From: Candidatus Bathyarchaeota archaeon
GTDB taxonomy: Archaea; Thermoproteota; Bathyarchaeia; TCS64
Direction of reading: 5' to 3'
Assembly: GCA_018396695.1 (NCBI GenBank)
Contig: JAGTQU010000005.1
Span: 421-64,420, forward strand
Length of the DNA: 64,000 nt
The notes beneath the pieces were generated by a model. It saw only the letters and a program-made list of their open reading frames with translations, was not told the DNA's origin and searched no databases. Shown here piece after piece: positions 759 through 45,062 of the stretch. Position 1 is the stretch's first letter, and each line of letters opens with the position of its first letter. A program made the translations under genes and the position numbers.

Positions 759-1772
759 TTATTGAGAGAATCTTCTACTCCGCATCCAGACGGCCATTTC
801 TACTAAACGTTTCACTCTTCGCCTCTTGGCAACCATGATGCAAAAGAAGATGATAACTCCAGGAATAATCATTAAAAGAAGTAAAGTGTAGACTGCATTG
901 AACGCTGGAGTTTCTTTGAGAAATAGGAATGATATTGGAACTGTGCTTCCTTGAACATACCACCAATTACTAGGCGTTATTCCTGTCAGCCACCAAGATA
1001 TGTCGCAAGAGATAGGTATGACAAATAATACTAGGTGGTAAAGCCATAACATAAAACATGTGTCATCATCAGTAAAAGCAAGAGGGGCGATTATGCAACC
1101 AGCATACCAACTTAAGAGAGCAAACATTTCTAATCCTAGATGTGCACCTGGCTGAAACAGGAAGTAAAGTATTCCCAGCGGAGAGATGGAAAAGGGGAGG
1201 AGAGACAGCCAAGGAAAACGACCTCTAATCTCAATATCGGGATTGCTCTTTTGAATTGGGAAAAAATCGTCTGCAAAAAATATGATCGCCATCAGAGATG
1301 CAATAAGAATGAAGCCTTTCAAGGTTTTAATTATTAGAGGGAAATAGCCTAAGACCGGGATCCTGCCTGCGAACTTGCCTACTATATTCTCTTCAGGTAC
1401 GGGTCTCCCGTCGGGGAAAAGATTATTATCGCCTTTAGTGACGAACATCCATCTGTCATCTTCTACGTATTTCTGTATAGCTCTGTGAACAATGTAATCT
1501 TCTGAAGAGCCTCGAGTGAAAACAATAATATCTCCCTCGGGGGCAGGAGAAGCAACTACCTCATTAAAATCGTTAATCTGCTCAACGAATATGAAGTCTC
1601 CAACCCCTAGAGTTGGAACCATACTTTGAGATACTACAACCATAAGAGGATATTCGGTTTTAAAGATCGATCTTAAAATATAAATGCTCCCGAAGGTCAT
1701 TGTGAATAGGATTACTATTAAAACCAGATATCCTATGACTTCTTTTTTCCCTGCCATTCCTTGACCTCGCAT
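759..1772 (-). CDS. signal peptidase I (S26B, archaeal Sec11-type) with long C-terminal polytopic membrane extension
   Basis: N-terminal TM then VVVSQSMVPTLGVGDFIFV (Ser nucleophile box) and conserved GDNN-like box; C-terminal about 170 aa is hydrophobic multi-TM. Confidence 0.7.
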   Translation of the reverse strand: MRGQGMAGKKEVIGYLVLIVILFTMTFGSIYILRSIFKTEYPLMVVVSQSMVPTLGVGDFIFVEQINDFNEVVASPAPEGDIIVFTRGSSEDYIVHRAIQKYVEDDRWMFVTKGDNNLFPDGRPVPEENIVGKFAGRIPVLGYFPLIIKTLKGFILIASLMAIIFFADDFFPIQKSNPDIEIRGRFPWLSLLPFSISPLGILYFLFQPGAHLGLEMFALLSWYAGCIIAPLAFTDDDTCFMLWLYHLVLFVIPISCDISWWLTGITPSNWWYVQGSTVPISFLFLKETPAFNAVYTLLLLMIIPGVIIFFCIMVAKRRRVKRLVEMAVWMRSRRFSQ

Positions 1773-4405: not shown

Positions 4406-5038
4406 TTGAATGATTTCATTAAAGACATGGAAAAAGTAGTTGAAAAGATGAAGCCTGAGCTTGATGATGAAGCGTACTCCAAGCTTAAAGCATTAGAGAA
4501 TCGGCTCACCGATCTTTATCAAAAGAACTTGGTTAAGATTAACCACTCAATAATGGAGCTTGTCTGTGCGAAGCACCTTATCAAGAATGGCTTTGAAGTA
4601 GCGATTGAGCATACATTGAACGGGATATCCTGCGACATCTATGCTACCAAAGGATTTGGAACTATGATTGTTGAAGTTGAAACAGGTTTTGTTCCCCCAG
4701 AGAATGCGTTAGACCCTCAGTTATATTTGAATGGACGGGTCGCAAGTAAAATAACGCGTTACAGTGGGTTCGCTAACAAGTTTTGTCTTGCCACCCCTCT
4801 ATACTATGTCATGCAAATACCCGCAGTCTTTTTAAAGCCTCCGCGTTTCAGAACCGAAAAAGAGATCGAACTGATGAAGCAATTATGTGACCTTTACTAC
4901 ACTAAACCGCCCATAACATTCGAGGAGATAAAGAATGCAAGGCTACACTCTATTTACACAATAAACGTCGACTCCACCAATATAAAAGAGTGGGATATTA
5001 ACGAGTACATGGGTAAAGCTGCCCTCTGGAATGTATAA
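4406..5038 (+). CDS. hypothetical protein with Hjc-like PD-(D/E)xK-type fold signature (Lys replaced by Glu)
   Basis: ELVCAKHLIKNGFEV...SCDIYA...MIVEVETG resembles the E/PD/ExK layout of Hjc-type nucleases, but the third motif reads EVE. Confidence 0.35.
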   Translation: MNDFIKDMEKVVEKMKPELDDEAYSKLKALENRLTDLYQKNLVKINHSIMELVCAKHLIKNGFEVAIEHTLNGISCDIYATKGFGTMIVEVETGFVPPENALDPQLYLNGRVASKITRYSGFANKFCLATPLYYVMQIPAVFLKPPRFRTEKEIELMKQLCDLYYTKPPITFEEIKNARLHSIYTINVDSTNIKEWDINEYMGKAALWNV

Positions 5039-5521: not shown

Positions 5522-6790
5522 TCATAACTCTAAAGTCTTTCTAATATCTCTCATAGAAGGTTCGACAATTTTTGAGCTATTTATGATGTTTGATTTTATC
5601 CCCGGCAAATCTCCTTCAAAATATCTAATAGTGGAGTCAGGGTCTTTTAGTATATTTCCTGTTAAAACGCAAACAATCTTCTCTCCTTTATCTATAACTC
5701 CAGAATCGAAAAGTCTTTTAGCTCCTGCAACAGAAGCTGCTGAAGCCGGCTCGCAGCCGATGCCGCTTCTATCTACTACAATTTTAGAATCCATGATCTC
5801 TTGGTCAGATACGTGCTCAACTACGCCATTTGTATTTTTTATTGCTGATAACGCCTTTTTCCAGTTGACAGGGTTACCTATCCTTATAGCAGATGCAACC
5901 GTTTTGGCCTCGCTGTTAGGCTCGAGGAGGCTAGAGCCTGTTGACCAGAGCCTGTAGAACGGGTCGGCACATTCAGCCTGTATGGCTGCTAAACGAGGCT
6001 TCTCATCAATGAGGTCTAACTCTTCTAACTCGGTTAAGGCTTTCCCGAATGCAGAGGTATTCCCAAGATTCCCTGCCGGCAAGATTATCCAATCTGGAGG
6101 TTTCCAGTTTAGTTGTTGGATAAGGTCGAAGACTATTGTTTTTTGCCCTTCGATTCGCCAGGGGTTTATCGAGTTCAGTAGATAGATGCCTAGTTCTTCA
6201 GAGGCTTGCTGCACAAGGCTCATTGCGTCGTCAAAGCTTCCTTTAACCTGGATCATGGTTGCTCCGTAAGCGAGCGTTTGAGCGAGTTTTCCATAAGCGA
6301 TCCTTCCTTCTGGAACAAAGACTATACACTTTAAGTCTGCTATGGCTGCATATGAAGCTAGTGAGGACGAGGTATTCCCTGTTGATGCACAAGCCACAAT
6401 ATTAACTCCTAAACGTTTAGCCTCGGAGACGCCTACAGTCATGCCTCTATCCTTGAAGGAGCCTGTTGGATTCTCCCCCTCATGCTTTAAATATAGGTTA
6501 GGCGTGCCTACGAAGCTCGAAATAAGTTTGCTGGTATAAAGATTCGTGTTACCTTCAGGTTTTGTTATAATGTGATTATTATCAAGTCCAGGGTATACTA
6601 ACTCTTTGAATCGCCACACACCGCTCTTTATGATGGGGTTTGGTGAACCCACCCTCTTATCAAATATGTCTCGCCTAATCCCCTCTCTGAACTCGTGTTT
6701 AACTTCGAAGAGTCCCCCGCACTCGCATTTCGTTTTAACCTCTAGAGGATAACTTTTCCCACAATCTATACATCTAAATATTGACGACAT
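5522..6790 (-). CDS. thrC: threonine synthase with N-terminal zinc ribbon
   Basis: CIDCGKSY...CECGG ribbon; PLP-lysine region TGSFKDRG; fold-type II PLP enzyme; 422 aa. Confidence 0.88.
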   Translation of the reverse strand: MSSIFRCIDCGKSYPLEVKTKCECGGLFEVKHEFREGIRRDIFDKRVGSPNPIIKSGVWRFKELVYPGLDNNHIITKPEGNTNLYTSKLISSFVGTPNLYLKHEGENPTGSFKDRGMTVGVSEAKRLGVNIVACASTGNTSSSLASYAAIADLKCIVFVPEGRIAYGKLAQTLAYGATMIQVKGSFDDAMSLVQQASEELGIYLLNSINPWRIEGQKTIVFDLIQQLNWKPPDWIILPAGNLGNTSAFGKALTELEELDLIDEKPRLAAIQAECADPFYRLWSTGSSLLEPNSEAKTVASAIRIGNPVNWKKALSAIKNTNGVVEHVSDQEIMDSKIVVDRSGIGCEPASAASVAGAKRLFDSGVIDKGEKIVCVLTGNILKDPDSTIRYFEGDLPGIKSNIINSSKIVEPSMRDIRKTLEL

Positions 6791-7702
6791 TCAGATCACT
6801 CTAACACCTTCAACGCTGGGTTTAGTGAAATAGGTGCTGCATTTAACGCCAGCTTCTTCGAAAGCTTCAGACATGGCGTTACCAATCTCCTCAAGATCCT
6901 CTCCAACTGCAAAAACCGATGGTCCTCCCCCTGCTATAGAGCACCCCAATGCTCCAGCGTCTAAAGCTTTCTCTTTCACCCGCCAGAAATTAGGGATGAT
7001 CTTAGCTCGGAAAGGCTCTACAAGTTTGTCACATATGCTTCTTCCGAAGAGGGTAGAATCTTTTAAAGCTACGGCCGCAGCCATCCTCGAAGCCTTTCCA
7101 ACATTCAAAACTGCCTCTTTCAGCCTAACGGATTCAGGTAATAGGGATCTCGCAAGCTTGGTTTTAGCCTCGTAGACGATTTCAGGTACTGCGATGACTA
7201 TTCGAATATTTGGAGGCTCCAATCGAACAACATCGTAGTCGAAATCTACTATAACGAAACCTCCTAAAAGAGAGGCGGAGACATTATCTGCATGCGCACT
7301 CCCAGATACCGCCGCCTCTCCTAAAGCAGCTAGTTTAACTAGTTCCCCTTTAGCTAAACCAAGGTTCAGCAGTTTATTAACCGCATACGCCGCTGCAGCA
7401 GCAGAAGCCCCTGAAGAGCCTAGCCCTCGTCCTGGAGGGATGCCTTTAATTATCTCAGCATGGAATCCGTGTGACAAGCCACGGCTTTCATAAATATACT
7501 TAAGAACAGTTCCAGCGCTGTTTCTAATCGCATCGCTTGGAATAGAATCCGCTCCCAGCCCGTTTACACTTATAGAGAGGGTTTTTTCCTTTATTATACT
7601 GAGCTTGAAGAAGTCGCCGATACCGTCAAGTGCTAGTCCAAAGACATCAAATCCTGGTCCAAGATTAGCTATGGAGGCTGGAGCATAAACTTCTATCTGT
7701 TT
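6791..7702 (-). CDS. thrB: homoserine kinase (GHMP kinase)
   Basis: Reading frame continues upstream of the track Met: KQIEVYAPASIANLGPGFDVFGLAL...PPGRGLGSSGASAAA (GHMP motif). No canonical start codon is found in frame before the upstream stop at 7703-7705. Confidence 0.75.
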   Translation of the reverse strand, partial: KQIEVYAPASIANLGPGFDVFGLALDGIGDFFKLSIIKEKTLSISVNGLGADSIPSDAIRNSAGTVLKYIYESRGLSHGFHAEIIKGIPPGRGLGSSGASAAAAAYAVNKLLNLGLAKGELVKLAALGEAAVSGSAHADNVSASLLGGFVIVDFDYDVVRLEPPNIRIVIAVPEIVYEAKTKLARSLLPESVRLKEAVLNVGKASRMAAAVALKDSTLFGRSICDKLVEPFRAKIIPNFWRVKEKALDAGALGCSIAGGGPSVFAVGEDLEEIGNAMSEAFEEAGVKCSTYFTKPSVEGVRVI

Positions 7703-8628: not shown

Positions 8629-9099
8629 ATGTCTTTATACGAGGAGTTGGAAAAGGCCAAAAACTATAGTGACATTTTCTCTCTAGTTAAAAAAGCTGTG
8701 AAAAAATCTCTTAAGGAGCATAGGGTAGGTCTCATGCTCTATCTTGGGAATCTTCCTATGAGAGTCGGGGCTTTCCATCCTATTGGGACAAACGATGTGG
8801 TTTTGAACAGACGGTTAATTAACGCTTTAAAATCTGAGGTTAAACAAAAATCCTATCTTTTCTCTATTCTCCTCCACGAGTATCTGCATAGTTTAGGCTA
8901 CCATGATGAAGAGCAGGTTAGAGCTTTAACATACAAGATTTCTGTTGAAAACTTTGGTAGCCAACATCCGGTAGTTGAAGCATCAATAGCTGGACCTTGG
9001 TGCGAATTAACTCAAGAAGACTATGAAGCGATTGAGCAGGATATAGATCTAGAAATGATTAAAGACTTTGAAAAGATTGAAATAGGATATATAATCTAA
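8629..9099 (+). CDS. hypothetical HExxH zinc-metallopeptidase-like protein
   Basis: SILLHEYLHSLGY (HExxH) in a 156-aa protein. Confidence 0.4.
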   Translation: MSLYEELEKAKNYSDIFSLVKKAVKKSLKEHRVGLMLYLGNLPMRVGAFHPIGTNDVVLNRRLINALKSEVKQKSYLFSILLHEYLHSLGYHDEEQVRALTYKISVENFGSQHPVVEASIAGPWCELTQEDYEAIEQDIDLEMIKDFEKIEIGYII

Positions 9100-12584: not shown

Positions 12585-12866
12585 ATGAGTCCAAGATCAG
12601 TCCTTTATTCCATTCTTGCTGTGTTAACAGGGTTCGCTCTCATAACCTCAGTAAACTGGGTAGGAAACAAAGCAGGAGAGCAACCTACGTTTAGTTTGGA
12701 GCGCCGATTAGATGAATTAACCGTTGAAAGCGACATGATTAAGGATTCCTTTGATCAGAATACCATGCAGAGTTTTTCTGAATGGGAGATAATCTTTGAA
12801 TCTCTTGCTTTAAATCTAATAATCGCTTTTGGGGTCTACTTTATAGCTAAGCGAAGATTTCAGTGA
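12585..12866 (+). CDS. small membrane protein (hypothetical)
   Basis: 93 aa with N- and C-terminal hydrophobic helices. Confidence 0.35.
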   Translation: MSPRSVLYSILAVLTGFALITSVNWVGNKAGEQPTFSLERRLDELTVESDMIKDSFDQNTMQSFSEWEIIFESLALNLIIAFGVYFIAKRRFQ

Positions 12867-12917
12867 AGGCTTAAACAAATGAAAAACCTAAAAAGAAAAA
12901 TGATAGTATCTTAGGGT

Positions 12918-13796
12918 CTATGTTATAACAGATTTTCCATCGAAATCTAACAGTCTTTGACGTTCGTTGTTAACCTCTTGCTGAACATAATCGATCTGTT
13001 CCTTATTGAGGTGACGGAACCTTGCTTGAGCCTTTAGATAATCCTCAATCGGTCGCTGTTTAGGCTTCAAAGTTAATCTAAGAACTCCGTTCTCAACCTC
13101 GTATAGTGGCCAAGCCCATGTTTCAACGCCTAGGCGTACAACTTCTACGCTCTTGGCAGGGTCGAAACGCCATCCAGTGGGGCAAGGCATGACTGTGTGA
13201 AGATACTTGAATCCGCTTATACTTTTTGCTTTAGTGATTTTAGCTTTAAGATCTCTAGGATAAGCAACGGAAATTGTTGCGACATATGGTACTCGATGTT
13301 GAGCTATTATCATCGGGATCCTTTTTTTAGGAGCTTCCTTTCCTTGAGGTGTTGTAGTTGTCCAAGCCCCATAAGGTGTGAGCCCACTCTTTTGGATCCC
13401 TGTGTTCATATATGCTTCATTATCGATGCAAATCTGGATCATGTTCTCATTTCTTTCAGCTGCAGCCGAAATCTTTCCAAAGCTAATATCCCCCGTGGCT
13501 CCGTCTCCAGCAGCCGAGATCACTGTCACATCGTTTCTGCCCTTCGCATTTAATGCTGCAACTATTCCAGTCGCACCATCTGCAGCGAAGGAAAAGTGTA
13601 TACCAAATGTCGGTAGTTTAATGTTTCTGATGGCGCATCCAGCGCATGGTCCATCTCCATATATGATCGAATTAGATCCTATGGCTTCAAGAGCCATGCG
13701 CCAAAACATCGGCCCCCCACAACCTGGGCAGCATGTACTCCCGCCTTGGAAGAGGCTTTTTTCATAGTATTCATCAAATAGCTTGTTTACCTCCAC
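12918..13796 (-). CDS. 2-oxoacid:ferredoxin oxidoreductase beta subunit (TPP-binding)
   Basis: CCPGCGG...GDG TPP motifs; part of G-D-A-B gene order. Confidence 0.85.
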   Translation of the reverse strand: MEVNKLFDEYYEKSLFQGGSTCCPGCGGPMFWRMALEAIGSNSIIYGDGPCAGCAIRNIKLPTFGIHFSFAADGATGIVAALNAKGRNDVTVISAAGDGATGDISFGKISAAAERNENMIQICIDNEAYMNTGIQKSGLTPYGAWTTTTPQGKEAPKKRIPMIIAQHRVPYVATISVAYPRDLKAKITKAKSISGFKYLHTVMPCPTGWRFDPAKSVEVVRLGVETWAWPLYEVENGVLRLTLKPKQRPIEDYLKAQARFRHLNKEQIDYVQQEVNNERQRLLDFDGKSVIT

Positions 13797-15804: not shown

Positions 15805-16045
15805 ACACTAGTTGATAAGTCTTTGGAAATCGAAAGCGAATCAAAATATCTCAAATATTTTATTCCATTTGATTTCGAAGATAATAAAGAGTTAACTAAT
15901 CTAGATTCTGTGTCATGAAGATTTTTATTTGATAGACTTTCGTGATGAGATCATTGATCTCTGATTGACTCAAATATATGAGATAATCTCGTATTATTTT
16001 CAGGCTCTGTAGAAACCCTCCCAAATTTATCTCATCCATGTTAAG

Positions 16046-16460
16046 ATGGATGCAGGGATAATGCGTATTGGGAGGGGTTCCAACTATGTTAGAATAGTCA
16101 AGGCGATAATAAAGGTTCTGGGGAAGGCTGATATACTACGCTATTTCAGCCGCTTCTCAAATAGGATCTACGATGCGTGGCAGCACGTGGTCCTCTTGGC
16201 CATCAGGCAGCTGGAGGATAAGTCCTAAAGGTGATTCGGAGGTTCCGATATGGAGGACGAGGGGCAAATACAGGAAAGAGATGAAGGGGGGCTACTCGAA
16301 GAAACTCTATAATCAGAGGAGCAAAGATGAGACGGTCTTCAGCGTCGTGAAGCGCCTCATGGGGGAGCACCTGTCATCTAGGCTGGTCAGGACGCGGAAC
16401 AGGGAGCTCGCCCTGAGGCTGGCCGCCTACAATGCTCACAGGCTGATCAACATCACATAG
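16046..16460 (+). mobile_element. IS5/IS4-family transposase remnant (C-terminal part, frameshifted, no DDE N-terminus)
   Basis: YNQRSKDETVFSVVKRLMGEHLSSRLVRTRNRELALRLAAYNAHRL matches the conserved IS5-family C-terminus; two overlapping frames; locally GC-rich. Confidence 0.6.
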
Positions 16461-16621
16461 GAAGGATTTCTACAGAGCCTCTTCAATAAAAAATTAAATA
16501 CTCGTTTATGATGCGAAATTCTTGTTATAGAGATAAAAAAATAATATTACTTTTTCAATGATCTAAGCGATTTAAGATGATTATAGCGAACTGAGAAAAA
16601 TAGGCTACCCGATCTAGGAGA

Positions 16622-17000
16622 TTGTTTAAAGATATAGCCCAAGCTGAGAGAATCCGCGCTTCAAACTGTTATAGAACATTAGCACAATGGAAGGAGATTC
16701 AACTTTCGCTGTGGCTGATTTTGAATCCTAAAAACTCTTCAGAAGACCTTGAAATTGGAATCGAAGGAGAAACCTTTGAAATATCTGAGATGTATTCTGC
16801 GTAAATAGAAGTAGTGAAAGCCCAGAGAGAGTACTCCGCTGAAATAGAGTTTCGTTACGCCTGGGAGGCTGAGAAGATGTATATTAGAGCTTAAACCAAT
16901 TAGTGTTTGCGAAGTCTGTGGCTACACCATAGAAGGAGAGCTCCCTGATGAGAGTCCAATATGTAAAGCCAGAAAGGAAAAATTCAAAATATTCTCGTAA
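16622..17000 (+). pseudogene. rubrerythrin pseudogene (N-terminally truncated, at least two frameshifts)
   Basis: Frame A ...EDLEIGIEGETFEISEMYSA*, frame B EVVKAQREYSAEIEFRYAWEAEKMYIRA*, frame C ...VCEVCGYTIEGELPDESPICKARKEKFKIFS*. The pieces are colinear with my recollection of the rubrerythrin C-terminal half (GIEGETFE..EMY, EAEK, C..CGY...P..CP.C.A.KEKF). Confidence 0.65.
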
Positions 17001-17039
17001 ACGTAAAAATATTTATTCGACCTTTCAGCTTTTGTTGAT

Positions 17040-17315
17040 ATGAAAAAAATCTTAGTCATCCCTCTATCAACTTTACTCATGGTAGCTATTCAAATTTTCA
17101 GTTTAATCTATGGAGTTGTTTATGATTGGCCAGATTTCTATCATATAAATTATGGATTCCCTCTAGTTTGGTCAACTCATACTCTTAATACTTTGATAGG
17201 CCCAGTTGACGTATGGAAAATAGATTTAACAAACTTAACGCTAGACTTAATCTTCTGGAATATTCTTGTTTTAGTTCTAATCTTTCTCTTAAGCAGCTAC
17301 TTTGAACGAAATTAG
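17040..17315 (+). CDS. small membrane protein (hypothetical)
   Basis: 91 aa, two hydrophobic segments. Confidence 0.35.
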   Translation: MKKILVIPLSTLLMVAIQIFSLIYGVVYDWPDFYHINYGFPLVWSTHTLNTLIGPVDVWKIDLTNLTLDLIFWNILVLVLIFLLSSYFERN

Positions 17316-17332
17316 AAGTAATGTATGGAGAG

Positions 17333-27375: not shown

Positions 27376-27506
27376 CGCTATGGGCCTCGCATATTCAAAT
27401 TATTAAAAGGATCCAGTTTCCACTACTTACTTGGAAGTATCTATATTTAATTTTTTGTTTTCCCCGCATTTTTCAGCATAAATGTATATGATTTAATTAT
27501 GGATAG

Positions 27507-27722
27507 TCATTTATGCCCCTTTTTTTCTTTTAACCACCATTCCAGATACTCTTGATGCCGTTTATTCTTCAATTCTTCAGCATCTTCTCTAGGCGTATGA
27601 AGTCTTTCAAGGGCTTCCGATAATTCGGCTTCAGTGAACGTCATCCCACAACTCTGACAGCTATAATGCTTCAATTTTCTATCCCAAGTCAACCTTCCAC
27701 CGCATTCAGTGCAGTAAGGCAT
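27507..27722 (-). CDS. zinc-ribbon protein (hypothetical)
   Basis: CTECGG...CQSCG. Confidence 0.45.
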   Translation of the reverse strand: MPYCTECGGRLTWDRKLKHYSCQSCGMTFTEAELSEALERLHTPREDAEELKNKRHQEYLEWWLKEKKGHK

Positions 27723-28150
27723 CTCCCCCTCAACCCTTTACTCATGAGAGGAGGAGCACATAGGCTGATAAAAATGATTCGATATTAATAGCGATTCCAA
27801 AAAAGATATTATTCATCAACTGAAACTCATGCGTATCTGGTTTCTCATAAACTACCTAAAATGGTATATGTCATTATTGTTAAATATTTTGTGTTTTGTC
27901 AACTATCTTTGGTGTGTATTTGTCTTCGGGGGATTTGGCTCGTTGGGGAAGGCGTCTTGCTCGGGGTTCTTTTATTACGTGTATGATGGTTTTTAGGAAG
28001 TGGCGGCTTGGCTGAAGGGGAGGGGCGGCAGGGTGTGGAGGTGAAGAAGGAGTCACTAATCCATTATCTTATATTTTCCGGCGGAAATTGAGAATGCTAT
28101 GAACGGCCTTGCGGATAATCCTGTTATTATCTGAAATCTGAGGAAGGACG

Positions 28151-28282
28151 TTACTGAATCCTTCTTCGGTTTTTCTGGATGCTCATGATCTTCAGCTTAA
28201 TCTCTCCCCCGTGCTTCCTAACCAGATGCCTGTTCAGCTTCTGCTGATCGCTTAGTTTTTCCCCGCAGATTGGACAAATGAA
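28151..28282 (-). pseudogene. C2H2 zinc-finger ORF lacking a start codon
   Basis: FICPICGEKLSDQQKLNRHLVRKHGGEIKLKIMSIQKNRRRIQ* (C-x2-C-x12-H-x4-H), preceded in frame by TAG. Confidence 0.4.
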
Positions 28283-28332
28283 CTACATTCGAAAAATCAT
28301 CCTGCTAGTAAAAAGGAGATGTTTAAAGGAGT

Positions 28333-28554
28333 TTAGGACTCATATACAGCTTCAAAGCTTTTGATATCTCCAAGACCGAGCGTTCTTTTATAAGTCTCAC
28401 TGTAAGCGGCGAAACCATACATTGTCAGCCAGTGATCCACATCGTCATAGAGGTCATCCAAGCCCGCCCAGTGGCCGAACTTGTCACGATGTTCTGGATG
28501 TTCCCTCTTGCCCGCATTTCTCAATGTTTTGCATATTAAAGCACTTCCAATCAA
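28333..28554 (-). CDS. hypothetical protein
   Basis: 73-aa ORF upstream of the zinc-finger remnant. Confidence 0.3.
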   Translation of the reverse strand: MIGSALICKTLRNAGKREHPEHRDKFGHWAGLDDLYDDVDHWLTMYGFAAYSETYKRTLGLGDIKSFEAVYES

Positions 28555-28659
28555 AAATAATTTAACTTCTGAACCTAATGACTTTTTTAATAAAAAGTTT
28601 TAATCGTTCTCTTCGTACGTCTATTAGTATTGGTGGGTGAGTGGACCCTCCACCCGTTC

Positions 28660-29169
28660 CGCCATAAAAACCCCGGTAATAGGAAGGTGAAAGTAAAATT
28701 GAAAAGCAGAGATCTTTCAATGGTTACTATTTTTGCGGCGCTTTATGCGGCGTTGGTGTACATTTTTGCTCCAATATCGTTCTATGCCTTGCAGTTAAGA
28801 ATCGCAGGCATACTTAGGCCAGCTATTGCAAAAAAATGGGTTTTAGCTATCGGATATACTATCGGAGTATTAGTTGGCAATCTTTTCAGCCCATTTGCTG
28901 GCGTATATGAGCTTATCTTCATGCCTATTATGAGCTTATTTGCCGGAATACTTGGATATTTAGCAGCCCTAAAATTCAAAAACGACTATTACATCACAGG
29001 TGCAGTTATCGCCACAATAATATCGATGAGTGTTAGCTGGATGCTTAGTCAACTATTTAACTTGTCAATGCTTTTAACTCTACCATATTTGTTCATAAGC
29101 GAACATGCAGTATGCTTCATTGGAGCATCTATCTTTAAGGTTATTGAAAAAAGATTCAAATGGTGGTAG
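28660..29169 (+). CDS. queT: QueT-like queuosine/archaeosine-precursor transporter (ECF S-component-like)
   Basis: Five TM helices; MVTIFAALYAALVYIF... Start reassigned to ATG 28660 rather than the track start at 28630. Confidence 0.55.
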   Translation, partial: RHKNPGNRKVKVKLKSRDLSMVTIFAALYAALVYIFAPISFYALQLRIAGILRPAIAKKWVLAIGYTIGVLVGNLFSPFAGVYELIFMPIMSLFAGILGYLAALKFKNDYYITGAVIATIISMSVSWMLSQLFNLSMLLTLPYLFISEHAVCFIGASIFKVIEKRFKWW

Positions 29170-29173
29170 AGCA

Positions 29174-29830
29174 TTGGAAAAAGAAAATAAATGCATTGTT
29201 GTTCTTAGTGGCGGACTCGATTCAACAACGGTTGCATATTGGGCAAAAAACCAAGGATATAGCCTTTACCTACTAACTTTCAAATACGGTCAAATTGCAA
29301 CGAAGGAAGTCAAATATGCATTAAAGATAGCGAATAAGCTTAAAGCGCCTATAAGGCTGATTGATCTCTCCTCATTGAAAAAAATCTTTACTGGAGTCTC
29401 GTCGCTTTGCGATGCAGATATTCCTATGACATCAAAATTCAGCCAGCCAATAATAGTCCCATTTAGAAACGCCATTCTTCTTTCAATAGCCGTTGCTTAT
29501 GCGGTATCGATTAATGCCGCAAGAATTTTCTACGGTGCTCAAGGATCGGATGAGCCATTCTATCCGGATTGCAGAAGAGAATTCTATAAATCCTTTGAGG
29601 CGACCGCTAGGCTTGGGACAGACTTAGTTATAACAATCGAAGCACCATTTAGCAACATGCCCAAGTCAGAGATAATTAAACTAGGATCTAGCTTTGGTGT
29701 TCCATTCGACCTTACATGGTCTTGTTATTTGAATGGGCCTAAACACTGTGGAAAATGTGAGTCGTGTGTGAATCGCAAGAATGCTTTCGCTGAAGCTGGA
29801 ATTCTTGATCCTACCGAATACAATGAATGA
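29174..29830 (+). CDS. queC: 7-cyano-7-deazaguanine synthase
   Basis: VVLSGGLDSTT PP-loop and C-terminal CGKCESCVNR zinc motif; start placed at TTG 29174 just after the queT stop. Confidence 0.85.
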   Translation: MEKENKCIVVLSGGLDSTTVAYWAKNQGYSLYLLTFKYGQIATKEVKYALKIANKLKAPIRLIDLSSLKKIFTGVSSLCDADIPMTSKFSQPIIVPFRNAILLSIAVAYAVSINAARIFYGAQGSDEPFYPDCRREFYKSFEATARLGTDLVITIEAPFSNMPKSEIIKLGSSFGVPFDLTWSCYLNGPKHCGKCESCVNRKNAFAEAGILDPTEYNE

Positions 29831-40005: not shown

Positions 40006-41145
40006 TTAATCATTTCTGTCAATAGTCTTTAGGTCTTTTCCTTTCTTTAGCTCTTTTTCGAGTTTTTCGCATAATATTTTGAAAGTATTTAAAATATCCC
40101 TGCCTTTAGCTTCAGCTATGTAGGTCTCTCCTGCACTTATAGTTTGAGCTATTATCTCATATCTAGTTTTTATCCCAAGAGCTTTCGTTCTTTTAATGTT
40201 TATTCTCACCTCTTCAACATGTGGATGAAGCCTTTGCGTACGCTTTAAAATGCGGCGAATACTTTCCTCAGCTAATTTTTTCTCCAGCAACTCTTGCGTT
40301 TCGAATCCAATCATATAAATTGGCGTCTCCTCCTCAGCTGTTAAAGTCAGAAGCGGTCTCATGATCTCTCTTGGAGTTACAATTCCAATTACTTTACGAT
40401 CCCCGTCTATAATGGTGCAAGCTCCTTTTTTTCGTTCCGATAGCCCACAAGCTATACTTCTCCAATGGGCGTTGACATCTGCAGTGAAAGGATGTTGATC
40501 CATAACTCTTCCCACTATTCCTGACAATTGTCCCCCCCTTTCCCAAGCAGCTCCTCCCATTAATGCTTCTTCTATATACATTAAGAAATGATTGATTATG
40601 ATCCCAGCTGTTATCATGCCTACTAGGCCTCCGTATTCTATGATGGGGATGTTACTGATTCCTTCCTGTAGCATTAGACTTCTCGCGACTGATATTCTCT
40701 CGTTAATATCTAGAGATGTGACAGGAGTCTTCATAAGCTCTCTAGCCTTTATGTCAGGTAGCTCTTCCACTCTGCAAATAGCTTCACATAGATTAACCTG
40801 AGTGAAACATCCGAGAACTTCATCCTCCTCCATAACTGGTACGGCTCTGACACCGATTTGATTCATCATTCGCACAGCGTCTAAAATTTTTTCATCCTTT
40901 GTAATGTAGCCTGTCACTCTCCATACATCTTTGAGTCTGGTTGCATCGGGTTGGGAGACTCGTAGCATATCACTTAACGTGACTATCCCAGCTTTTCTCC
41001 CAGATTTTACGACAGCTTCATATCTTTCAGATTTAATAAAATCTCTTATAACCTTTAATGCAAAATCCTCAACGCAATATACCTTCGAATTTTTATCGTA
41101 AAAATGACCAATCTTCGAGTTACACAGCTCAGCTAGATTCTTCAT
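40006..41145 (-). CDS. CBS-domain protein fused to C-terminal ribosome hibernation factor (HPF/RaiA, S30AE)-like domain
   Basis: Tandem CBS-like repeats in the N-terminal 280 aa. The C-terminal 90 aa (LAEESIRRILKRTQRLHPHVEEVRINIKRTKALGIKTRYEIIAQTISAGETYIAEAKGRDILNTFKILCEKLEKELKKGKD) aligns with the HPF/YfiA pattern. Confidence 0.55.
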   Translation of the reverse strand: MKNLAELCNSKIGHFYDKNSKVYCVEDFALKVIRDFIKSERYEAVVKSGRKAGIVTLSDMLRVSQPDATRLKDVWRVTGYITKDEKILDAVRMMNQIGVRAVPVMEEDEVLGCFTQVNLCEAICRVEELPDIKARELMKTPVTSLDINERISVARSLMLQEGISNIPIIEYGGLVGMITAGIIINHFLMYIEEALMGGAAWERGGQLSGIVGRVMDQHPFTADVNAHWRSIACGLSERKKGACTIIDGDRKVIGIVTPREIMRPLLTLTAEEETPIYMIGFETQELLEKKLAEESIRRILKRTQRLHPHVEEVRINIKRTKALGIKTRYEIIAQTISAGETYIAEAKGRDILNTFKILCEKLEKELKKGKDLKTIDRND

Positions 41146-41231
41146 TAAACCCTAATAATATTGAGCCAAGTTTAATAAATAGTTAAAATGGTTCAATAAA
41201 AAATTGATGGATTTTATGGCTTTTGAAGGCA

Positions 41232-44611: not shown

Positions 44612-45062
44612 AAGGGCCTCAATATTTTAACAATCTATGATGTCTATAAAATTTGTTTTTTCTCACTGAAATTGAATAGTCTTTCCGAGTTAGGAGAAGT
44701 TAATAACTTAGATAATATGCTGAAGAAGAGATGGCGTAGTCTTAGATAAAATGAAAATTTTATTTCGACTTCAGGCTTCACGACTTTTATTCGCGTCTCT
44801 CTAATCCGTTAAAGGATATAATCTAATTCACAAATCCCTTATAACCTTGTCTTATGGAGTAGTTATAGCGGCAGCTTTCGAAGCCATAATTTTAAGCTCT
44901 ACCAAGCATTCCCTCCAGATCCGCATTAGATGGTTCACGATATCTGAATAGCCTCTAGCATATTCCGTCTCCTCGTCTTAAAATGCTTTAAAAGCGTTTT
45001 GAGACCAACTTGAAACCGAATTATTGAAAATTCATAAATGTTAAGATGCTGTCTGAATTATC

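Follow-up and report, generated by a model that had tools for sequence, protein, structure and literature searches.

A divergent Candidatus Bathyarchaeota member of the HibA/AHA family that joins four CBS motifs to an HPF/RaiA-like domain

Two recent studies described archaeal ribosome hibernation factors in which a module of four CBS motifs (a CBS tetrad, equal to two Bateman modules) is followed by an HPF domain: HibA, from Pyrococcus abyssi (PAB0961 / Q9UYR4) and Thermococcus barophilus (hibA) (Madru et al., Nat Commun 2026, PMC13324472), and AHA, with an orthologue in Haloferax volcanii (Souza et al., bioRxiv 2026, PMC12934967). What is known of the function of these proteins comes from cryo-electron microscopy (cryo-EM), from assays in which they inhibited translation in vitro, and from the phenotypes of deletion strains (PMC13324472; PMC12934967). 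Cryo-EM placed HibA's C-terminal domain in the 30S subunit's mRNA/tRNA channel and its CBS module in three positions on the 50S subunit, namely the peptidyl-transferase centre (PTC), uL5, and the L1 stalk; for the family, cryo-EM and knockouts showed that both the decoding centre and the PTC are blocked, and that 70S ribosomes are silenced and protected (PMC13324472; PMC12934967). Madru et al. report HibA from 47% of archaeal genomes, spread over all major lineages (PMC13324472); for AHA, the reported distribution is 2,723 species from 17 phyla (PMC12934967). The genome list of the HibA paper mentions Bathyarchaeia 149 times. Here, we analysed a stretch of 64,000 nucleotides from a Candidatus Bathyarchaeota archaeon (GenBank assembly GCA_018396695.1, contig JAGTQU010000005.1, positions 421 to 64,420 of the forward strand; hereafter, the window) and focused on a minus-strand gene at 40006..41145, the product of which is very probably a ribosome hibernation factor of the HibA/AHA type. 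A preliminary description of this DNA had read the product as a CBS sensor fused to an HPF/RaiA-type domain, and the same architecture has been demonstrated experimentally for its homologues (PMC13324472; PMC12934967); the accompanying remark that HPF-type factors are not standard in archaeal translation control is outdated, given the reported distributions of HibA and AHA. The gene product is a divergent Bathyarchaeota member of a family already published in 2025–2026 with structural, genetic, and phyletic data, and the family itself is not new. Our literature search found no paper that combines Bathyarchaeia, hibernation, and HPF.

The list of open reading frames (ORFs) of the window gives a complete gene of 379 codons plus a stop codon, with an ATG start. 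Since the stop-to-stop frame reaches only two codons further upstream, to 41151, translation cannot begin earlier than the ATG at 41145, and in the alignment the N-terminus (MKNLAELCNSKI...) is in register with the N-termini of the homologues. The protein is identical to NCBI MBS7620245.1 / MBS7630459.1, named ‘CBS domain-containing protein [Candidatus Bathyarchaeota archaeon]’, and a homologue with 42% identity carries the JGI name ‘CBS domain-containing protein/ribosome-associated translation inhibitor RaiA’. The gene and its parts are as follows, with the evidence for each in brackets.

40006..41145, minus strand: complete gene of the probable HibA/AHA-type hibernation factor (ORF, sequence identity, family profile)
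40957..41118, minus strand: CBS motif 1, residues ~10–63, with the canonical ribose-binding pair Thr56/Asp59 (Pfam, model, alignment)
40771..40938, minus strand: CBS motif 2, residues ~70–125, with the pair Thr115/Asn118 (Pfam, model, alignment)
40561..40752, minus strand: CBS motif 3, residues ~132–195, with the pair Thr179/Ile182 (Pfam, model, alignment)
40510..40578, minus strand: extended loop after CBS3, residues 190–212, equivalent to the ‘PTC loop’ of HibA and ‘loop 3’ of AHA (model, alignment)
40342..40521, minus strand: CBS motif 4, residues ~209–268, with the pair Thr257/Glu260 (Pfam, model, alignment)
40024..40320, minus strand: HPF/RaiA-like domain, residues 276–374, the putative 30S-binding module that would block the decoding centre (hidden Markov models, profiles, fold)
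40009..40023, minus strand: short C-terminal tail, residues 375–379 (alignment)

Homology to HibA extends over the whole protein. When a profile of 11 family members was compared with P. abyssi HibA (PDB 9SR9 chain H), profile positions 10–380 aligned to chain positions 4–382 in a single stretch (E = 5.4e-51, 177 bits); this score is 50 bits above that of the best protein with CBS domains only, and HibA was the sole full-length match. The identity of 9SR9 as HibA, along with that of 9SRA–9SRF and 9T7H, is taken from the data availability statement of the paper (PMC13324472). The architecture and the full-length collinear profile match to HibA therefore place the window gene in the HibA/AHA family. 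The family is sizeable and homogeneous: at E ≤ 1e-30, it includes 761 cluster representatives (clustered at 50% identity), and among the 150 of them listed, most are 360–410 aa long and match over their full length in a single stretch. A single-protein scan of GTDB species-representative genomes returned two distant loci only (Parvarchaeota and Methanosarcinales), a result that is uninformative on the distribution within Bathyarchaeia. We also observed that the HibA chain was deposited under the molecule name ‘Dehydrogenase’ in 9SR9 (chain H) and seven related entries; with this name in the PDB and ‘CBS domain-containing protein’ for the window protein at NCBI, name-based look-ups would miss the hibernation function.

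The preliminary description had assigned the C-terminal ~90 residues to HPF/RaiA, and we examined this domain by hidden Markov models (HMMs), profiles, and predicted structure. The order of its elements is beta (276–279), alpha (283–302), beta (310–320), beta (328–337), beta (340–348), and alpha (351–374), and it is the same in the AlphaFold models of the whole protein and of the isolated domain, the latter with a predicted local distance difference test score (pLDDT) of 83 and a predicted template modelling score (pTM) of 0.70. With Pfam Ribosomal_S30AE, residues 298–371 matched profile positions 17–85 of 88 (E = 0.012, 16.7 bits), below the cutoff of 23.7; with NCBIfam TIGR00741 (yfiA), residues 296–371 matched in the same register (E = 0.0031, 18 bits), below the cutoff of 40.9. 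The isolated domain scored better with Pfam Ribosomal_S30AE (PF02482; E = 7.9e-4, 20.6 bits), still under 23.7. The direct HMM test alone neither confirms nor refutes the HPF claim; therefore, we turned to profiles and fold comparison.

A profile of the C-terminal ~108 residues, built from 11 homologues and compared with all PDB sequences, gave bacterial HPF/RaiA/YfiA proteins as its ten best matches (E = 0.0027–0.04), which align profile positions ~61–107 to chain positions ~51–97 and correspond to strand beta4 and helix alpha2. The helix quoted in the preliminary description, AEAKGRDILNTFKILCEKLEKELKK, is this same beta4–alpha2 segment, and it is here that sequence similarity to bacterial HPF is strongest. 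Seven of the 11 profile members individually match Pfam S30AE, the best at E = 1e-4. An hhalign comparison of this shallow profile with Escherichia coli HPF aligned just 37 columns (73% probability); a deeper HMM of 142 members was needed. The latter aligned profile positions 16–103 to HPF positions 11–93, nearly the full length, at 29.0 bits, with a single-comparison E-value of 4.8e-11, or ~1e-5 if scaled to the PDB sequence set; E. coli RaiA scored 25.6 bits. Over their C-terminal halves, the E. coli HPF and RaiA sequences used with the deeper HMM are consistent with those in the PDB alignments. In a Foldseek search of the PDB with the domain model, the top 35 matches were all HPF, RaiA/protein Y, chloroplast pY/PSRP1, or mycobacterial MPY or RafH (E from 3.5e-5, probability 1.00, template modelling score [TM] up to 0.77–0.80), mostly from ribosome-bound structures. 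The HPF claim holds despite the borderline HMM scores because of this profile and fold evidence.

In the N-terminal part, Pfam CBS matched four times, at E = 4.9e-26 and with 91 bits where the cutoff is 24, and in the AlphaFold model of the full-length protein (pLDDT 84, pTM 0.68) residues ~10 to ~268 form four beta-alpha-beta-beta-alpha units, in agreement with the tandem CBS motifs noted earlier. Searched against the PDB with Foldseek, the full model matched CBS tetrads only, the best with a target TM of 0.8; the module superposes on SSO3205 with AMP, MJ1225, AMPK-gamma, and the ribosome-bound SriA/B/D and Dri. Of the checks proposed in the preliminary description, structure prediction bore out both halves of the protein, giving four CBS units and an HPF/RaiA fold, whereas the HMM search was clearly positive for the CBS part and left the S30AE/HPF part borderline.

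By homology, the HPF-like domain would occupy the decoding centre and mRNA path of the 30S subunit, while the CBS tetrad (residues ~10–268) would dock on the 50S subunit at tRNA positions and its extended CBS3 loop (190–212) would reach into the PTC. A single polypeptide could in this way bridge both subunits and block the A, P, and E tRNA sites together with the mRNA path, and the covalent link between the two domains would clamp the subunits into a silent 70S ribosome that stays intact and degradation-resistant during starvation or stress. Nucleotide binding to the tetrad may tune the availability or release of the factor; such gating, uncertain already for the characterised homologues, is even less certain here because the ribose-binding Asp is substituted at two of the four positions.

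Several observations weigh against assigning the window protein to HibA/AHA. All direct HMM scores with the S30AE and yfiA models fall below the curated cutoffs, and BLASTP against P. abyssi HibA (residues 4–382, reconstructed from the profile alignment) aligned the CBS region only, at 24% identity. None of the HibA entries (9SR9 etc.) was among the Foldseek matches in a PDB library of releases to 2026-04-08; the paper is dated 2026-04-27, and the entries were probably released after the library date. The experimental support for the family comes from homologues outside Bathyarchaeota. The remaining points concern individual residues, which we compared using a MAFFT alignment of 142 family sequences and the contact list in Supplementary Data 1 of the HibA paper. 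CBS2 and CBS3 lack the ribose-binding Asp, and CBS4 has Glu in its place. At the 51 published contact positions of the 30S domain, only five residues agree exactly, or 19 if similar residues are counted as well. The decoding-centre Trp (P. abyssi W351), present in 118 of the 142 members, is Arg349 in the window protein, and P. abyssi R336 is Gln334. Finally, the C-terminal tail is short, with a net charge of +1 against a family median of +5.

The nucleotide sites bear on regulation. In the alignment, the Thr/Asp ribose-binding pair is intact in CBS1 alone. Position 182 in CBS3 is Ile in the window protein versus Asp in 78 of the 142 members, and position 260 in CBS4 is Glu, a residue shared with 22 members, the family residue being Asp in 114. 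According to the ARC paper, the Thr/Asp pair tracks the nucleotide occupancy of these tetrads, and an Asp-to-Asn change goes with an empty site in ARC-A. By analogy with its homologues, the tetrad probably binds adenine nucleotides. In HibA and AHA, however, nucleotides are bound at the CBS3/CBS4 interface (PMC13324472; PMC12934967), and because the Asp residues of these two motifs are substituted here, adenylate sensing by the window protein is plausible but not assured. Of the three adenine nucleotides, AMP is the one for which P. abyssi HibA has a higher affinity than for ADP or ATP, yet neither AMP nor ATP changed its ribosome binding in vitro (PMC13324472). The earlier proposal that the fusion directly couples cellular energy charge to ribosome silencing is accordingly not established for the family, and still less for the window protein, given this result and the restriction of the Thr/Asp pair to CBS1.

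The ribosome-contacting parts show a mixture of retained and altered features. Between the anchors F187 and M215, the PTC-loop region has 29 residues, which is both the P. abyssi length and the family median. In HibA, the PTC loop (residues 190–207) wraps A2834 (PMC13324472); Glu202/Arg203 of the window protein are the counterparts of P. abyssi E201/K202, which contact A-loop G2785 and A2834, while the rest of the region differs from P. abyssi and is less basic. AlphaFold confidence is low at residues 197–206, which are flexible in the model. In the 30S domain, the h44 contacts R298 (= R299) and K364 (~ R366) are kept, as is S337 (~ T339), and most of the 51 contact positions are variable across the family. 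W351 of P. abyssi HibA touches G496 (h18) and A1461 (h44), or G530/A1492 in E. coli numbering (PMC13324472). The Trp is replaced by Arg or Gly in the window protein and its two closest relatives; P0004, a homologue with 64% identity, still has Trp. Short tails occur in the three closest relatives of the window protein as well, and the longer basic tail of P. abyssi HibA extends to the exit channel of the mRNA, where it reaches h23, uS7, uS11, and eS28 (PMC13324472). The divergences of the window protein are variation within the HibA/AHA family and are no evidence against membership.

A separate observation concerns P. abyssi Phe325/Arg326, which contact A1461 and uS12. These residues fall in MAFFT columns that are gapped in 125–131 of the 142 members (around residues 323–325 of the window protein, 40171–40179), and the insertion is missing in the window protein, as in most of the family. 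At least part of the archaeal-specific insertion described in the HibA paper therefore looks lineage-specific rather than family-wide, and judging from the alignment it is possibly specific to Thermococcales.

It is unlikely that the Bathyarchaeota subclade with the window protein is a regulatory and binding variant of HibA, marked by a hydrophobic residue in site 3, Glu in site 4, replacement of the Trp, and a largely missing tail; if so, nucleotide sensing by the variant could run via CBS1 or be lost, and fewer contacts could serve to hold the 30S subunit. The window protein could derive from HibA with its regulation or ribosome engagement rewired, so that it might bind through the core HPF fold only, or sense another ligand or none through CBS1, a reading that we regard as improbable. 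It would draw on Thr179/Ile182 in CBS3, Glu260 in CBS4, and a Thr/Asp pair kept solely in CBS1; on the exchanges of Trp for Arg349 and Arg for Gln334; on the short tails of the protein and its three closest relatives; and on ARC-A, in which the site is empty when the corresponding Asp is changed to Asn. However, the protein has kept every domain, the length of the loop, and the fold, Glu stands in for Asp in 22 of the 142 members, and RNA contacts are possible for Arg too. Moreover, the contact positions are poorly conserved family-wide, so that divergence at them is not unusual, and P0004 keeps the Trp at 64% identity.

We consider it very improbable that the gene encodes a generic CBS regulatory protein with an unrelated small alpha/beta RNA-binding fold at its C-terminus, such as a double-stranded RNA-binding domain (dsRBD), and no hibernation factor. 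The HPF-model scores below threshold and the NCBI name, merely ‘CBS domain-containing protein’, would fit such a protein, and dsRBD and RNase III domains do occur among the weaker fold matches (ranks 36–49). However, the dsRBD-type matches begin only at rank 36, with E ≥ 0.026 and a query TM of at most 0.50, compared with E = 3.5e-5 and TM 0.77 for HPF, and a dsRBD-like C-terminal domain was rejected on this fold score. Sequence profiles independently and exclusively pick HPF/RaiA, and the full-length collinear homology is to HibA, which has itself been visualised on ribosomes.

Membership in another archaeal CBS-tetrad family (SriA–D/ARC, Dri, or HhpR-type transcription regulators) in place of HibA can be dismissed almost entirely: single-sequence scores are nearly equal for a ribosome-bound CBS protein of M. 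acetivorans (9zni_6, 59.1 bits) and HibA (58.7 bits), and the tetrad superposes well on SriA/B/D and Dri, but those families are without an HPF domain whereas the window protein consists of one tetrad plus an HPF domain, and the profile puts HibA first by 50 bits as the only full-length match, so that Sri, ARC, Dri, and HhpR membership were all rejected on architecture.

The HibA/AHA-type gene lies in a same-strand run of genes encoding a GNAT acetyltransferase, an inositol-1-phosphate synthase-like protein, a GPN-loop GTPase, OCD (ornithine cyclodeaminase/mu-crystallin), the HibA homologue, a D-2-hydroxyacid dehydrogenase, and an M19 dipeptidase, after which follows a divergent gene for a family-B DNA polymerase. 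The same gene order is found on the contigs that carry the 64%- and 42%-identical homologues. None of the neighbours is evidently connected with translation, and for this reason we read the synteny as shared ancestry and not as an operon. An A/T-rich element lies in the 86-bp spacer upstream of the gene:

41171..41180, minus strand: TATA-box-like element ATTTATTAAA, 26–35 nt upstream of the ATG (sequence only)

Its position suggests that the gene is transcribed from a promoter of its own, into an mRNA with a short leader or none. No other ORF with a CBS tetrad or HPF domain was found within the 64-kb window. On the contig with the 42%-identical homologue (L003), a second small CBS gene of 145 aa (12833–13191) lies ~5.6 kb downstream and runs off the end of the fetched locus; no such gene is present in the window. 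The published surveys describe HibA and standalone CBS modules as excluding each other in most cases. The relatives also have a ~1-kb gene for LPG_synthase_TM, a lysylphosphatidylglycerol synthase-like membrane protein, between the GNAT and GFO/IDH/MocA genes (L001 1377–2393, L003 1262–2290). The corresponding gap in the window, 44612–45062, is only ~450 bp; therefore, this gene is absent or degraded here.

Elsewhere, the window carries archaeal housekeeping genes, including those for TBP, the small and large subunits of RFC, tRNA-splicing endonuclease, subunits of pyruvate:ferredoxin oxidoreductase, glutamate dehydrogenase, and QueC/QueT. Searches of the window for tRNA genes and Rfam families found none. 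Two stretches, 15805–17332 (1.5 kb) and 27376–28629 (1.25 kb), have no ORF of at least 110 aa, no tRNA gene, and no Rfam match; the second lies directly upstream of the QueT/QueC genes (28630–29830), the ORFs of which overlap by 65 bp as mechanically listed. Pfam gave no match at E ≤ 1e-5 for three ORFs, 759–1772 (minus strand, 337 aa), 4406–5038 (plus strand, 210 aa), and 8629–9099 (plus strand, 156 aa), and the first of them adjoins a small Rpc34-like winged-helix ORF (1792–2169) and the TBP gene (2169–2747). A GHMP-kinase ORF of 228 aa with a TTG start (6791–7477, minus strand) abuts a PALP-enzyme gene (5522–6790), and its N-terminal Pfam domain is matched from profile position 16; its true start may lie elsewhere, or its N-terminus may be truncated.

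For the HibA homologue, a reading made from the DNA letters recovered an architecture that is real and not yet reflected in public annotation, and the practical value lies in an improved annotation for a gene of an uncultured lineage. The list of substitutions (the CBS3 Asp, the decoding-centre Trp, and the C-terminal tail) could help to tell which features of HibA are essential.

Among known systems, HibA is closest: both proteins are archaeal and share the CBS tetrad, the HPF domain, and full-length collinear profile homology, and they differ in sequence (24% identity over the CBS module) and in the Asp residues of CBS3 and CBS4, which are Ile and Glu in the window protein. AHA, compared by description only, has the same 4xCBS + HPF arrangement, the same proposed mechanism (HPF bound to the small subunit and the tetrad to the large one, with loop 3 in the PTC), and a terminal helix that, like residues 351–374 here, is longer than in E. 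coli HPF; in AHA, two AMP molecules were seen in sites 3 and 4, where CBS3 and CBS4 join, whereas the window protein has Ile at site 3 and Glu at site 4. Bacterial HPF, RaiA (YfiA), and chloroplast PSRP1 (pY) share the C-terminal fold (TM 0.6–0.8), with sequence similarity concentrated in beta4–alpha2, and the small-subunit binding site is the same in the characterised archaeal homologues. However, the window domain scores under the curated cutoffs of PF02482 and TIGR00741, and it ends a 379-aa protein behind a CBS tetrad, whereas bacterial HPF is either standalone (~95–115 aa) or carries the C-terminal dimerisation domain of long HPF; archaeal HPF domains form a clade of their own.

Dri of Pyrobaculum calidifontis (9E6Q/9E7F) is likewise an archaeal CBS-tetrad hibernation factor, similar in sequence and with superposable tetrads, but it has two tetrads in ~655 aa and no HPF domain, and its chain 9e6q_3 matches the window protein via the CBS repeats only. 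SriA–D and ARC-A/P of Methanosarcina and Methanolobus (9ZNF/9ZNG/9ZNI) are CBS-tetrad hibernation factors of archaea too, similar in sequence and with tetrads that superpose; these are standalone tetrads with a small occlusion element, acting singly or paired and without an HPF domain, and the Sri chains, of 257–339 aa, match only the CBS part of the window protein. According to published reports, a genome that has HibA mostly lacks the Dri and Sri/ARC families, and vice versa. AMPK gamma, an energy sensor of eukaryotes, shares the CBS-tetrad fold (Foldseek E ~ 1e-16, TM 0.55–0.58 over ~300 columns) and the Thr/Asp logic of the ribose site at 14% identity; the window protein is without the alpha and beta kinase partners, and its output would be the HPF domain in cis.

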